Below the pieces are notes generated by a model, which did not search any database, had not been told where the DNA came from, and worked only from the letters and a program-made list of their open reading frames with translations. This document shows, in pieces, positions 16,441-21,100 of a stretch of DNA of 64,000 nucleotides. The translations under genes were made by a program, and so were the position numbers. Each line of letters begins with the position of its first letter. The stretch's first letter is position 1. This stretch comes from Escherichia phage vB_EcoM_G10400. The stretch is from the sequence record MK327937.1. One strand, given 5' to 3'.

Positions 16441-16641
16441 ATGGTACAAAAATTAATGGCACTTGTTAATGCCATAAAAGGTAATAAGAAACGTATAGCT
16501 TTTACTATTTCTGCTATGGTAGGAATTTTACTCTGGAACTTTATTTTATCACCTGTTGCAATTGCACATGGTATTAATATTCCAGTAGTTACTCTTGATA
16601 CATTCGTAGATTTAGCATTTGCTTTAGTTGGGTTAATTTAA
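16441..16641 (+). CDS. hypothetical small membrane protein (only credible plus-strand gene)
   Basis: 66 aa, AAGGAGG SD 4 nt before ATG; two hydrophobic segments; lies in intergenic gap between genes 56 and 61. Confidence 0.45.
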   Translation: MVQKLMALVNAIKGNKKRIAFTISAMVGILLWNFILSPVAIAHGINIPVVTLDTFVDLAFALVGLI

Positions 16642-17666
16642 ATCTTAGCATATTTAGATAGCCGCATTTTAGCCATCAACCCCTGGGCAATATTATTTTT
16701 CATATATTCCATAATTTGTTCAGGGGTTGCACCTTCCTTTCTAATCATATCATTAACATCTTTTGATTTCCAGGGAGATTTATCCCAAAACATAACCCTT
16801 TCTCCTGCATCAACTAATTTAGTCATTCGTTTAATAGTGTCAGGGTGACGAGGTTCATTATCTAAAACCCACACACGTCTATCTTTAAATGGAACAACTT
16901 CTAGGTCTAATTGACCACCTGTAATAGCTATACCATTTTCAATAAAAAGTGAATCTATAGGTCCTTCTAGAACATATACATCACCATCTTTAACTCGTTC
17001 GACTCCATAGATTTTTGTTGCTTCAGGATAAGCTTTGATAGTGATATATTTTTGGGGAGCATCTTTCTTTAATGCACGTCCTTGAAAAGACTCAGCTTTT
17101 CCATTAGCATTATAAATTGGAATAACAAGACGAGGCTCAGGTATTTCCTTTTTATATGTTCCCGGTGCTATGCTATTAACTAATTTAGGCCATTCGGTTG
17201 TAAACCAAAGATATTTCCATTTATCCTTTGGAATACAACGAGCTTTTACATATTTTATAATTGGATGGTCTTCCGCCAGTTTATCTAATCTAACACATGA
17301 CGGAAGAGATTTAATTATTTTCTTCTCAGGTTGTTTAGGAAGTTCTTTAGGTTTTTCTACTGGACGACTTTTACCTTTTTCTTTTCTTATTTCAAAGATA
17401 TACTCACGATATAAATCAGGTTCAAACTCCTTTAAATATATTCCGATTGGTGCATGATAGTTACAGTTATAACAATGAATATTTCCTTCATTATTATCAC
17501 CATAATACCATCCACGAGCTTTATTCTGGTCGGTTTTTGAATCTCCGCAAACAGGGCATCTAAACCGTAATTTAAAAGTTGAACTATTATTTACTTGTGT
17601 GAATTTAGGTAAATGAGCCAATGCACGATACGCAAACTCATTATCAATCCAAGGTATTGATGACAT
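16638..17666 (-). CDS. 61: DNA primase
   Basis: 342 aa; zinc ribbon CPVCGDS...CYNC and Toprim; matches T4 gp61 length. Confidence 0.93.
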   Translation of the reverse strand: MSSIPWIDNEFAYRALAHLPKFTQVNNSSTFKLRFRCPVCGDSKTDQNKARGWYYGDNNEGNIHCYNCNYHAPIGIYLKEFEPDLYREYIFEIRKEKGKSRPVEKPKELPKQPEKKIIKSLPSCVRLDKLAEDHPIIKYVKARCIPKDKWKYLWFTTEWPKLVNSIAPGTYKKEIPEPRLVIPIYNANGKAESFQGRALKKDAPQKYITIKAYPEATKIYGVERVKDGDVYVLEGPIDSLFIENGIAITGGQLDLEVVPFKDRRVWVLDNEPRHPDTIKRMTKLVDAGERVMFWDKSPWKSKDVNDMIRKEGATPEQIMEYMKNNIAQGLMAKMRLSKYAKI

Positions 17667-17668
17667 TT

Positions 17669-17833
17669 TTACTCTTCTTTTTCTTTAGATTCCTCTTTTT
17701 TCTTTTTAGGAATCTGTTCAGGACCTTTATTTACTACAGCACCTGATGTTGTTCCAGTAGAGATATTTTCAGGATTACCACCTGAATCTCCAGCAACCAT
17801 ATCTTCTTTAATAAATTCTTTATATGTTTTCAT
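17669..17833 (-). CDS. hypothetical small protein (61.1-like)
   Basis: 54 aa hand-translated ORF, Lys/Glu-rich C-terminus. Confidence 0.45.
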   Translation of the reverse strand: MKTYKEFIKEDMVAGDSGGNPENISTGTTSGAVVNKGPEQIPKKKKEESKEKEE

Positions 17834-17879
17834 ATTAACCTCTATTCATAAAAGCATTAAAAATTTGGTCATCAATAGA
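17831..17879. repeat. 49-bp direct repeat, copy A
   Basis: catattaacctctattcataaaagcattaaaaatttggtcatcaataga; 48/49 identical to copy B. Confidence 0.85.
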
Positions 17880-18191
17880 TGGCGCAGTAATATTTTCTGC
17901 ATCATTTAGCAAATCATTAATTTCATCGGATAGCATAACACATGTACCTTTATTTCCTGTAATTGTTACTGCGCAATTACGAACGTTTTCTTTATTAAAT
18001 TTTAGGTTAATATTTTCGTAATGAAAATCCTTTAATGCTGAATATATTTTTAAAATAAAATTGTCTTTTACTACAATAAACCCAACCTCACTATTAAAAC
18101 GTGGTTCATGGAAACTGTAATAAACCTTTTCATCTATGAAATCGTATGAAATTTTTTCCATTTTTAAATATGAAAATTCAGAACTATACAT
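17835..18191 (-). CDS. hypothetical protein flanked by 49-bp direct repeats
   Basis: 118 aa; last 14 codons and stop are inside a repeat copy shared with the next ORF. Confidence 0.55.
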   Translation of the reverse strand: MYSSEFSYLKMEKISYDFIDEKVYYSFHEPRFNSEVGFIVVKDNFILKIYSALKDFHYENINLKFNKENVRNCAVTITGNKGTCVMLSDEINDLLNDAENITAPSIDDQIFNAFMNRG

Positions 18192-18237
18192 ATTAATCTC
18201 TATTCATAAAAGCATTAAAAATTTGGTCATCAATAGA
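18189..18237. repeat. 49-bp direct repeat, copy B
   Basis: catattaatctctattcataaaagcattaaaaatttggtcatcaataga. Confidence 0.85.
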
Positions 18238-18819
18238 AACATTTACTTTAGACTGTTTTTCAGATGGCAATTCATATCCACATATTACAATTTTATGATC
18301 AATATCAAAATACACAGAAGCAATATGATTAATGATATTTTCAGTGAAGTCTAAATCGACATCAATATCTTTTTGACCAAAGCCAAAAGGATAAATAATG
18401 CGAGTAATTCGATTATCTTTAACAAAGATTCCACCGACATACTCTGTACTGCGTTTAAAGTCTACACGCCGACGAAATGAAAAATATTCAGGCTCTTTAT
18501 GAGCTCGGCTCATAGGACACAACGAATAACTAGAATAAGAGATGTCAAATCCTACGCCTTCGATATGAGCCAAAGTGTCATGATTAAACCAATTATAATC
18601 GTACGCCAAATCCATTAGATTATAATATGTAAAAGGCACCGGATTAACATCATTAGTCACAAGCATATAATTAGCAACTGCTATAATTTCATTGTTTTTA
18701 ACGAATACAAACCGTGATTGATGCGAATGGCCTGAACCCGCGTTTTCACGATTAATGATATAACACTGGGCACCTTTATATTTGTATGTATCTTTGCACT
18801 TGTGCATTTGATAGAGCAT
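18193..18819 (-). CDS. hypothetical protein (61.2-like)
   Basis: 208 aa ORF; C-terminus SIDDQIFNAFMNRD. Confidence 0.6.
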   Translation of the reverse strand: MLYQMHKCKDTYKYKGAQCYIINRENAGSGHSHQSRFVFVKNNEIIAVANYMLVTNDVNPVPFTYYNLMDLAYDYNWFNHDTLAHIEGVGFDISYSSYSLCPMSRAHKEPEYFSFRRRVDFKRSTEYVGGIFVKDNRITRIIYPFGFGQKDIDVDLDFTENIINHIASVYFDIDHKIVICGYELPSEKQSKVNVSIDDQIFNAFMNRD

Positions 18820-19112
18820 TATTCACCTACCACTTCAGCGATGATATTTTTGTTATTAAAGTTTTTATCGCAATACAGAACATAATTATACTGCATTACA
18901 CCACCAGACTTAAGTTGTTTTTGCACTTCAGCTTTCATTTCAGGACGATCGCGCTCAACGATATTCATAATATCCGCTTCAATTTGAGTTTCAACTTCAG
19001 TCTGATCCGCAGTCATAGACCATTCGCACAAATCTTTATCATAACCTGCCATAGCAGGCTGAGCAGCACAAGAAGCTAAAGCAAAAATTGCGGCAAAGAT
19101 AAATTTTTTCAT
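18819..19112 (-). CDS. sp: spackle periplasmic protein (superinfection exclusion, gp5-lysozyme inhibitor)
   Basis: 97 aa with signal peptide MKKFIFAAIFALASCAAQPAMA; size and position match T4 Sp. Confidence 0.8.
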   Translation of the reverse strand: MKKFIFAAIFALASCAAQPAMAGYDKDLCEWSMTADQTEVETQIEADIMNIVERDRPEMKAEVQKQLKSGGVMQYNYVLYCDKNFNNKNIIAEVVGE

Positions 19113-19140
19113 GATAATCTCCTCAGTAGTTTATGTTTAT

Positions 19141-19170
19141 ATAGTATCTCAATTTCCAACAAAAGTAAAC
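19141..19170 (-). promoter_or_regulatory. early promoter
   Basis: minus strand gtttac + 18 nt + tactat upstream of sp. Confidence 0.5.
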
Positions 19171-19172
19171 AG

Positions 19173-19472
19173 TTATTTTAAAACTTCTGCGTAATCACAT
19201 GTTACAAACTGTTTCTCTAGCTTGACGATTTTACGAAAGTATCTTTTACATTGACGAATCTGTCGCTTAGTAGGGCGCACAGCAAACTTAATAAATTCCA
19301 CTCGACCAAATGGAGGGCTTTCTTCTGATGGAATATCTAACACCAATTCCCACGTATCTGCAATAAGTGCTTTGAATTGAGTATTTTTCCTAACGTTATA
19401 CGGAGTAGGTTTAAATAAAACAATATGCATATTATCCTCGGCAATCCACTTCACATACTTTCTTGTCATCAA
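19173..19472 (-). CDS. hypothetical protein
   Basis: 99 aa ORF. Confidence 0.5.
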   Translation of the reverse strand: MMTRKYVKWIAEDNMHIVLFKPTPYNVRKNTQFKALIADTWELVLDIPSEESPPFGRVEFIKFAVRPTKRQIRQCKRYFRKIVKLEKQFVTCDYAEVLK

Positions 19473-19614
19473 TGAAAGCTTTAACTAATGCTTTATTAAC
19501 TTCAGCATACTGAGTAGTAGCCCATTGAACGTCATCTTTCATCATTGTGGTTTCTTTAGTAAACATGCTTTCATTCTTAAACCACCCCATAAAAACTACC
19601 TTTACCAATTCCAT
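19432..19614 (-). CDS. dmd: Dmd-like antitoxin (inhibitor of host RnlA/LsoA toxins)
   Basis: 60 aa, position just upstream of gene 61 cluster and below gene 41; matches recalled T4 Dmd. Confidence 0.6.
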   Translation of the reverse strand: MELVKVVFMGWFKNESMFTKETTMMKDDVQWATTQYAEVNKALVKAFIDDKKVCEVDCRG

Positions 19615-19643
19615 AACAATCTCCTCATTTAACCAACAAGACT

Positions 19644-19673
19644 ACTATACCATAGTCTCGTCAGCTTGTAAAC
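19644..19673 (-). promoter_or_regulatory. early promoter
   Basis: minus strand gtttacaagctgacgagactatggtatagt upstream of dmd, overlapping gene 41 stop. Confidence 0.55.
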
Positions 19674-21100
19674 TAAAATTTTAATTCATTCGCCAAAGCA
19701 TCTAACTGAGCTCGAGTGGATTCATTTCTTTGATAGCGATTCTGCTCAGCCTGAATCTGTTGTGAACCTGCTACTTCGTTCACTTCAGTTGGAGTAGAAT
19801 CTTGTTCAATTTCTACCCATTTCTGATTTCCCTTTTGAACACCCATCAAAAACTTATTCCACTTATTCTTATCGCCATATCGTGATTTGATTTGCTTAAT
19901 GAGTTGTTGTTCAGCAGCTGCTAGCTCCTCGGTTTCAATGACCGCAAGCATAAAATCAGCTGTTGCTGGAAGACCGGCAGATTCTGCGATATCACTCATG
20001 TTAACATCAGAAGAATCCCAAGCTTGTTTACCAACCTGTGCTGCAGTCCAAAGAACAGTTTCGGTTTCAACAGCCAGAGCACGCAATTCCTCTGCAATAG
20101 CTTTAACAGTTGTGTAACTATTTTCTGAATAAACTCTAATGCGGCAAGATTTACAAATACCTAGATAGTCGACAATAATGATTGTTGGAACAAAATTCTT
20201 CTTGAGCTTCAATTCGTTTAAAAGTGATCGAAATGTATTAGCATCTGCTCCACCGGTAGGATACTGTTTAACGATTAAACGACCGAGAGTAGATTTCTCA
20301 CGCCATTTTTCCATTTTTCCTTTATACTCAGCGTAAGAAATATGCCCATCATCAATGTCATCAAGAGAAACATCAAGCATATTAGCATCAATACGCTTAG
20401 CACAGACTTCTTCTGCCATTTCCATGGAAATGTAAAGAACGTTATGACCAAGCTGCAAATAATCTGCTGCCAATGAACACAATCCTAATGACTTACCAAC
20501 GTTAACGCCAGCCATTAAAACGTTCAGTGTTCCAGTCTCAGCTCCGCCTTTAGTAATTTTGTTTAGAATTCTGAGTTTAAATGGAACCTTACGAGCTTTA
20601 TTCATATAAGATAGCCAACGTGCTTCGTAGTCATCCATCCAGTCATGACCAACGTAGCTATCAAATGAAATTGATAATGCTTGCCGCATGATGTCAGGAA
20701 TAGCACCAACATCCGGCATTTTCTTATTTCGTTTTTCCGGAGGAAGCTCAGCATTAGTTTGAATTTCGATTATTTTAGACGTAGCATTAAACATCGCCCT
20801 TTGCTGAACATATTTTTCTGTTTCTTTTACTAACCAGCTGTGGTCTTCCGGAGAATCAGCCAGTTTTGAAATAAGTGTTTTTACACCAGAATATTCTGTT
20901 TCAGTAAATGAACTATTTTCTAATGCAACATTTAACGCATTAATAGATGGAACGCTATGATACTCATTAACATGAGATTTAATTAATTTGAATGTATTTT
21001 TAGCTGGACCACTTTCAAAATATTCTGAATCCATATATGGCCAAACTTTTGAAAAATAAGCTTGATCAAATATGAGATGAGAAAGAATAATTTCTACCAC
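19673..21100 (-). CDS. 41: replicative DNA helicase (DnaB-like)
   Basis: 475 aa; Walker A GVNVGKS; matches T4 gp41. Confidence 0.95.
   Translation of the reverse strand: MVEIILSHLIFDQAYFSKVWPYMDSEYFESGPAKNTFKLIKSHVNEYHSVPSINALNVALENSSFTETEYSGVKTLISKLADSPEDHSWLVKETEKYVQQRAMFNATSKIIEIQTNAELPPEKRNKKMPDVGAIPDIMRQALSISFDSYVGHDWMDDYEARWLSYMNKARKVPFKLRILNKITKGGAETGTLNVLMAGVNVGKSLGLCSLAADYLQLGHNVLYISMEMAEEVCAKRIDANMLDVSLDDIDDGHISYAEYKGKMEKWREKSTLGRLIVKQYPTGGADANTFRSLLNELKLKKNFVPTIIIVDYLGICKSCRIRVYSENSYTTVKAIAEELRALAVETETVLWTAAQVGKQAWDSSDVNMSDIAESAGLPATADFMLAVIETEELAAAEQQLIKQIKSRYGDKNKWNKFLMGVQKGNQKWVEIEQDSTPTEVNEVAGSQQIQAEQNRYQRNESTRAQLDALANELKF

Follow-up and report, generated by a model that had tools for sequence, protein, structure and literature searches.

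The window analysed here, a 64-kb stretch of DNA, derives from a T4-like phage (Tequatrovirus), and the locus under study is 99.9% identical to that of Escherichia phage FriedrichZschokke. In the list of open reading frames (ORFs), all the genes of the locus are on the minus strand: 61, 61.1, an ORF of 118 codons, adfA, sp, 61.4/tifA, dmd and the gene for helicase 41; the features that matter most here are collected in Table 1. The 118-aa gene lies directly downstream of adfA, in head-to-tail orientation, within the early anti-toxin-antitoxin island of the T-even phages, whose members are dmd, tifA/61.4, sp, adfA, the short gene, 61.1 and 61. The region was named the anti-TA island in previous work, in which its other genes were regarded as 'attractive anti-toxin candidates' (Srikant et al., 2022; 10.1101/2022.04.14.488369). 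Neighbouring genes at the locus are 1 nt apart, and the stop codon of sp overlaps the start codon of adfA (ATAATG). Across positions 17500-19800 no terminator-like site was found, and promoter-like sites occur at chance level (14, against 11.5 +/- 3.8 expected). Given this tight spacing and the lack of a terminator, the short protein is probably co-translated from an early polycistronic message.

Table 1. Genes and repeat elements between primase gene 61 and sp (positions are those of the 64-kb window)
Feature	Position	Strand	Remarks
Primase gene 61	16638-17666	minus	
Gene 61.1	17669-17833	minus	54 aa; ATG within repeat copy 1
Repeat copy 1	17831-17879	minus	last 14 codons of the 118-aa gene, 17838-17879; TAA, 17835-17837; spacer, 17834; ATG of 61.1, 17831-17833
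Ribosome-binding/start module TAGAGGTTAATATG	17831-17844	minus	14 nt, 3' end of the repeat; second copy at 18189-18202, one mismatch
118-aa gene (RB32ORF033c)	17835-18191	minus	one-domain AdfA paralog
Repeat copy 2	18189-18237	minus	last 14 codons of adfA, 18196-18237; TAA, 18193-18195; spacer, 18192; ATG of the 118-aa gene, 18189-18191
adfA (gene 61.2, anti-DarT factor A)	18193-18819	minus	208 aa; His165 at the published specificity position
sp (spackle)	18819-19112	minus	upstream boundary of the variable slot

Several observations concern the neighbours of these genes. The product of gene 61.1 (54 aa) matches the C-terminal 46 residues of a family of 155-156 aa, phrog_2086, which has the 61.1 position in RB69-like phages (sampled locus L023, 3665-4132); on the strength of this match 61.1 seems to be what is left of the C-terminus of a larger protein, or a module of it. 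The name given to it in several RefSeq records, 'major capsid domain-containing protein', looks wrong. In one JS98-like genome from IMG/VR (sampled locus L015, 3831-5021), primase gene 61 is in pieces, of 84 aa and 135 aa, and a 176-aa ORF just upstream of the split gene may represent a homing-endonuclease insertion. In the window, a 66-aa ORF for a hydrophobic protein is found on the plus strand (16441-16641), with minus-strand genes on either side; its counterpart in the annotation of RB51 is 'RB32ORF030w, similar to RB69ORF029w'. At the other end of the locus, the right flank of BP32, PP01 and a further sampled locus (L011) matches the window through sp only (about 360 of 611 nt), and the position of 61.4/tifA is occupied in all three by other small genes, annotated ComC-alpha/goF, so that tifA also appears to be variably present in the anti-TA island.

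The 118-aa gene is bracketed exactly by two direct repeats of 49 bp that are identical at 48 positions. This had been proposed in a preliminary description of the locus and was confirmed by repeat finding together with the ORF list; inspection of the coding strand bore out that each copy comprises the last 14 codons and the stop codon of the upstream gene and the ATG of the downstream gene. The 49-bp repeat is coding sequence, and on the coding strand reads TCT ATT GAT GAC CAA ATT TTT AAT GCT TTT ATG AAT AGA G(G/A)T TAA T ATG. Repeat finding and an approximate search placed the 49-mer at exactly two positions in the 64-kb window, 358 nt apart from start to start, and it was absent from 100 dinucleotide-preserving shuffles. 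With two copies only in the window it is not the general element, present at many loci, that had been considered as an alternative; in related records, too, the 49-mer is found at one or two places. The sole mismatch (C at 17839, T at 18197) falls on the second base of the last codon, which is GGT (Gly) in the 118-aa gene and GAT (Asp) in adfA. The 118-aa and 208-aa proteins accordingly have in common 13 tail residues, SIDDQIFNAFMNR, followed by G or D, and not the 14 identical C-terminal residues claimed at first. The 14-nt module at the 3' end of the repeat consists of the Shine-Dalgarno (SD) sequence, the spacer and the ATG of the next gene, and no further occurrence of it was detected in the window beyond its two repeat copies. 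Copy 1 holds a GAGG SD sequence for 61.1, whereas the mismatch in copy 2 makes the SD sequence GAGA.

The products of the two genes preceding these start modules are related outside the tail as well. The 208-aa protein is AdfA (Pfam PF23813, E = 5e-135), and the 118-aa protein scores 32.2 bits against the same profile (cut-off 27; E = 8.8e-8), the match covering only positions 113-211 of 211, the C-terminal half; a match to PF23813 is also present, in precomputed searches, on all clusters of the short family. By BLASTP the two proteins are 32% identical over 102 aa. An HMM of the short family built after trimming the last 14 residues from every sequence matches residues 105-181 of AdfA (E = 3.6e-7), and hhalign comparison of tail-trimmed profiles gave weak scores (probability 16-30%) preferring the N-terminal half of AdfA (E = 6e-4), the alignments behind these profile comparisons being shallow (Neff about 1.5). 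In PHROGs the two proteins belong to separate families, each of which matches the other. A phmmer search with the 118-aa protein against 1.84 billion representatives returned only three clusters (118, 119 and 125 aa) and two spurious, repetitive proteins.

The AlphaFold2 (AF2) model of the 118-aa protein has a pLDDT above 90 over residues 8-100, from only eight sequences. The predicted fold consists of five strands followed by a helix, a strand and a helix, after which a disordered linker leads to a tail helix (106-115) of low pLDDT. Our searches recovered no solved structure and no recognisable fold relative of the protein; in a Foldseek search of BFVD, the model matched the short form of Gaprivervirus (TM 0.77), a 212-aa AdfA (E = 7e-5) and a 145-aa family described below (E = 1.4e-3). 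In place of the two-domain architecture of AdfA (208-216 aa), the 118-aa protein has a single beta-beta-beta-beta-beta-alpha-beta-alpha core plus the tail. Other traits of the AdfA family are present: the beta-hairpin motif G-x-I-x-V-K-D-N-x-I, the C-terminal motif DDQIFNAFM and the position between sp and 61.1. The short gene has its own start codon and SD sequence, its length of 118 aa is kept in about 298 phage records and is conserved across two genera, and its dN/dS of 0-0.39 indicates purifying selection. The 118-aa ORF is a genuine gene, coding for a one-domain paralog of AdfA. In GenBank it is annotated as 'RB32ORF033c, similar to gp61.2' (RB32, RB14 and RB51). We also note that the short paralog is mislabelled '61.2 / gp61.2' in T2 (NC_054931, sampled locus 931-1257) and in PP01 (sampled locus 1036-1392), and that the T2 annotation has it begin at an internal start codon (327 nt); the mislabelling can mislead surveys of the presence or absence of adfA.

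For AdfA itself the AF2 model is of moderate quality (pLDDT 72). In this model the order strand-strand-strand-helix occurs twice and is followed by a detached tail helix of low pLDDT, and the predicted secondary structure of the 118-aa protein is colinear with each half of AdfA. A BLAST comparison of the N- and C-terminal halves of AdfA gave a weak signal (E = 0.004). The models thus support, with weak backing from the sequence, the view that AdfA may comprise two copies of the domain found once in the short protein. The search for homologues of AdfA returned T-even relatives only. Among Tequatrovirus adfA genes two N-terminal allele types were seen (in RB51, ECML-363 and sampled locus L012; protein clusters P0007-P0019), one T4-like (MLYQMHKC..., 208 aa) and one RB69-like (MIYYMHKNPPF..., 210 aa). 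In their C-terminal halves the alleles are mosaics, and the last residues of sp vary along with them (...EVVGE or ...EITGE), so that recombination breakpoints also fall inside adfA; the residue at the specificity position is His, Arg or Asn, depending on the allele.

The locus was also sampled in other genera, with sp as the anchor. The slot downstream of sp is filled by a single gene or a pair, drawn from three families, with at least four genera represented: AdfA (208-216 aa) in Tequatrovirus and Mosigvirus-like phages, a 145-aa family in JS98-like phages and Gaprivervirus, and the short form (116-125 aa) in Tequatrovirus and Gaprivervirus. All three families end in S(I/V)DDQIFNAFM(N/K)(R/K)(G/D). 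Outside this tail, homology of the 145-aa family is not significant by sequence (E 0.03-0.1) and is seen only at the level of structure (Foldseek). Families without a paralog next to them keep the tail as well: the RB69-type AdfA and the 145-aa family where it occurs alone. The primer sequences in the AdfA study indicate that RB69 AdfA ends in QIFNAFMNRG, encoded by different codons (PMC11257639). Across genera the DNA of the tail varies mostly at third codon positions, a signature of selection on the peptide. In Gaprivervirus the 145-aa gene comes first and is followed by the short gene, which is flanked by direct repeats of 45-52 bp (88-94% identity) and whose product is 42-47% identical to that of the Tequatrovirus short gene; the recurrence of the tandem layout and of the repeats implies an old origin of the gene pair. 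What makes up the repeat is a 3' end conserved throughout a gene family and joined to a translation-initiation module, and no scar of a duplication; it is the expected by-product of tandem paralogs with a conserved common end in a compact genome. In one Gaprivervirus genome (sampled locus L020, 3195-3240, compared with its closest relative, L019) the 145-aa gene stands alone and its tail keeps the GAT (Asp) ending, which in all other cases precedes a short gene; a crossover would have to fall in the last 8-9 nt of the repeat, or, alternatively, this genome may represent a pre-insertion state.

Within Tequatrovirus the slot occurs in four states, which differ in the distance from the sp stop codon to the ATG of 61.1: 12 nt with neither gene, 370 nt (12 + 358) with the short gene only, 627 nt with adfA only and 985 nt (627 + 358) with both. 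Approximate counts among about 539 records, derived by subtraction and including duplicate RefSeq/GenBank records, are 153 for both genes, 183 for adfA only, 145 for the short gene only and 58 for neither or other arrangements. The comparison across T-even genomes that had been suggested for this locus thus shows the short gene to be polymorphic, with about 298 of about 539 Tequatrovirus records carrying it; T4 has adfA only, and T2 the short gene only. The prediction that recombination between the repeats would excise the gene cleanly, making it easily lost, fits the natural variants: T4, Kelasse and others correspond to the window minus one unit of exactly 358 bp, with a single 49-mer left at the junction (T4, RB14 and Kelasse have one 49-mer each, and T4 is exactly 358 bp shorter than the window). 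Aligned over 2.6 kb, RB18 (both genes) and Kelasse (adfA only) show one gap of 358 bp and no other indel, the gap being flanked by 784 and 70 identical nt. In short-only genomes it is the 14-nt module alone that flanks the short gene, including at the junction between sp and the short gene, and in the neither state one copy of the module lies between sp and 61.1. For the presence or absence of adfA, no simple repeat or microhomology was found that reproduces the observed neither junction.

When trees are built from the left flank (61/61.1) and from the right flank (sp/61.4), the four states are scattered over both and the trees conflict with each other, which indicates that the states were generated or reassorted repeatedly. 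Following one ancient event, reassortment by way of homology in the flanks could be enough to maintain the four states, so that recurrent deletion through the repeat is a possibility rather than an established process. Segments of this same island are deleted and amplified in T4 between repeats of 2-10 bp (Srikant et al., 2022; 10.1101/2022.04.14.488369, where earlier work on such events in rII and genes 16-18 is cited), so that a 49-bp repeat should be an ample substrate. As in those events, direct repeats flank the unit, a single repeat is left behind and the island is the same; the differences are that the repeat described here is 49 bp long and is conserved coding sequence, and that the events are reconstructed from natural variants rather than from laboratory observation. 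A candidate for natural tandem amplification, Yersinia phage phiD1 (NC_027353, four 49-mers), proved to be an assembly artefact: the junction (about 1300-1350 of the sampled locus, minus strand) is N-rich, and all its non-N bases agree with the Illumina TruSeq adapter GATCGGAAGAGCACACGTCTGAACTCCAG. Among the records with the locus no genuine natural tandem amplification of the short gene was found.

At silent positions the two tails of the window are more alike than short-gene tails from different genera. The 13 shared tail codons contain about 6.3 synonymous sites, at which the two paralog tails of the window show no difference, whereas the short-gene tails of the window and of Gaprivervirus phage DK-13 show five synonymous differences over the same number of sites; the pS of the body of the short gene between genera is 0.70, which is saturated, and the cross-genus tail is equally saturated. 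The paralog tails of DK-13 differ by one synonymous change and those of other Gaprivervirus genomes by two to four, with the variants in a mosaic pattern. In seven of the eight tandem pairs examined, from both genera, the upstream gene ends in GAT (Asp, with GAGA before the short gene) and the short gene in GGT (Gly, with GAGG before the gene that follows). Identity within a genome at synonymous sites that differ between genera points to episodic recombinational homogenisation, which may have proceeded by gene conversion or by crossovers in the tail, with about six sites, a small number, being informative. As in the concerted evolution of tandem paralogs, one short segment is identical here amid otherwise saturated paralogs and its variants co-vary within genomes. 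Unlike the usual case, the tract, at about 40 nt, is very short, and it overlies a peptide motif under strong selection; for this reason selection and conversion are not fully separable.

How the repeat arose can be read in several ways. The 118-aa gene had at first looked like a recently duplicated or acquired cassette, a recent partial copy of its neighbour, say, with the repeats as the scar. Repeats that are 48/49 identical and bracket the gene exactly, as well as its absence from many close relatives, T4 among them, agree with such an origin, which is nevertheless highly improbable and, in our opinion, already largely refuted: the two proteins are only about 32% identical outside the tail, the synonymous sites of the short-gene body are saturated between genera, and the tail is conserved where no paralog is adjacent. 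The same tandem, with its repeats, is found in Gaprivervirus, and the 42-47% identity of the short proteins argues against a recent horizontal copy there. The least credible of the readings considered takes the ORF for part of a duplicated adfA that has lost its function and is in decay. That only half of the AdfA profile is matched and that many phages dispense with the gene might suggest as much, but a dN/dS of 0-0.39, the length kept in about 298 records and two genera, a core modelled with pLDDT above 90 from just eight sequences, and a start codon and SD sequence of its own are all at odds with decay.

Two further readings assign the repeat a function as nucleic acid. It could be a dedicated recombination or mobility linker for the swapping of anti-defence modules, comparable to PeSL cassettes or to integron attC sites, given that the three protein families of the slot end in the same sequence, that in two contexts, with flanking repeats of 49 or of 14 bp, the short gene acts as a unit of 358 bp, and that the states are scattered over the flank trees. 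PeSL cassettes likewise consist of small, non-essential ORFs with flanking repeats of ~50 bp that mediate insertion, deletion and replacement (Arbiol et al., 2010, PMC2839356; Comeau et al., 2014, PMC4122927); PeSLs, however, are intergenic promoter-terminator units found at many loci, whereas the present repeat is a coding 3' end plus a ribosome-binding site, belongs to one gene family, occurs nowhere else in the window and has no PeSL-type promoter or terminator signature. Moreover, tail variation is concentrated at third codon positions, as it should be if a peptide is under selection, the locus has no associated recombinase or endonuclease, and the general recombination of T4 would suffice; we judge a dedicated linker to be improbable. 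The repeat could, on the other hand, form an mRNA hairpin that hides the downstream SD sequence and enforces translational coupling between genes 1 nt apart. In the window both copies do fold, with UCUAUU pairing to AAUAGA(GG) and covering the SD sequence (z-scores of -2.7 and -1.2). In 16 tails from four genera, however, the proportion of cells that pair is 71.2%, compared with 69.9% for shuffles; several of the pairs cannot form in most of the sequences from outside Tequatrovirus, and a double change is seen in one pair only. An SD-sequestering hairpin, which folds in the window and is without support across genera, was thus rejected as the explanation, and we hold it to be decidedly improbable.

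We favour, with a probability of about three in four, an account that is both structural and evolutionary, in which the short gene is a paralog of adfA, the repeat is made by the tail of the family and a 358-bp unit is lost or gained through the repeat. The last two codons of each gene, its stop codon and the next nucleotide double as the SD sequence and spacer of the gene that follows, and wherever two such genes stand in tandem, a direct repeat of ~49 bp on either side of the downstream gene is the automatic result. Selection on the peptide and on the ribosome-binding site would keep the copies nearly identical, probably helped by recombinational homogenisation between them, and the repeat would serve as a substrate for the very active homologous recombination of T4, unequal exchange presumably taking out or adding exactly one 358-bp unit.

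A broader reading, which we regard as rather unlikely, takes the invariant, detached DDQIFNAFM helix to be a portable partner-binding peptide that might dock, for example, DarT-type toxins or a common host factor. Its DNA and the ribosome-binding site would then form an in-frame recombination linker, the slot between sp and 61.1 would be a cassette-exchange site at which inhibitor modules of 118, 145 and 208 aa are mixed, and AdfA would be a fusion of two modules.

As to function, the AdfA study reports that AdfA binds DarT1 and that residue 164 sets its specificity, His being functional and Arg not; that deletion of adfA from T4 had no phenotype against the DarTG1 used; that AdfN is the main counter-defence, necessary for resistance to DarTG1 in T-even phages; and that T2 is treated as naturally without adfA (PMC11257639). 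In AdfA of the window, His165 is the equivalent of RB69 residue 164, whereas the short family has an invariant Cys (Cys73) in place of the functional His at the aligned position, in the equivalent helix. The short protein is like AdfA (LeRoux et al., 2022; PMC11257639) in that it passes the Pfam threshold and has the locus, the tail, the beta-hairpin and the specificity-position helix in common with it; it is unlike AdfA in having one domain (118 against 208-216 aa) and in its invariant Cys, as opposed to His/Arg at 164. From these sequence comparisons we tentatively propose, at somewhat less than even odds, that the short protein could inhibit a DarT-like or other toxin stoichiometrically and differ from AdfA in its specificity. 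As reported in the same study, AdfN is needed, and T2, which has only the short gene, is counted as lacking adfA, which suggests that the short protein alone does not neutralise that DarT1.

AdfA is among the few characterised phage counter-defences against DarTG, and surveys have scored its presence by the full-length gene only. About half of the sequenced T4-like coliphages, including T2, carry the one-domain paralog, often without adfA, and the paralog readily suggests itself as a candidate counter-defence directed at another target. What is of modest interest here is thus a widespread one-domain paralog of AdfA, a detached tail common to three families, and the homogenisation of that tail. 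The detached common tail offers a concrete hypothesis for the way in which these proteins contact their partner. The 49-bp repeat predicts spontaneous deletions of 358 bp and tandem amplifications, which would be easy to select, and makes the locus a convenient natural system for the rapid gain and loss of anti-defence genes.
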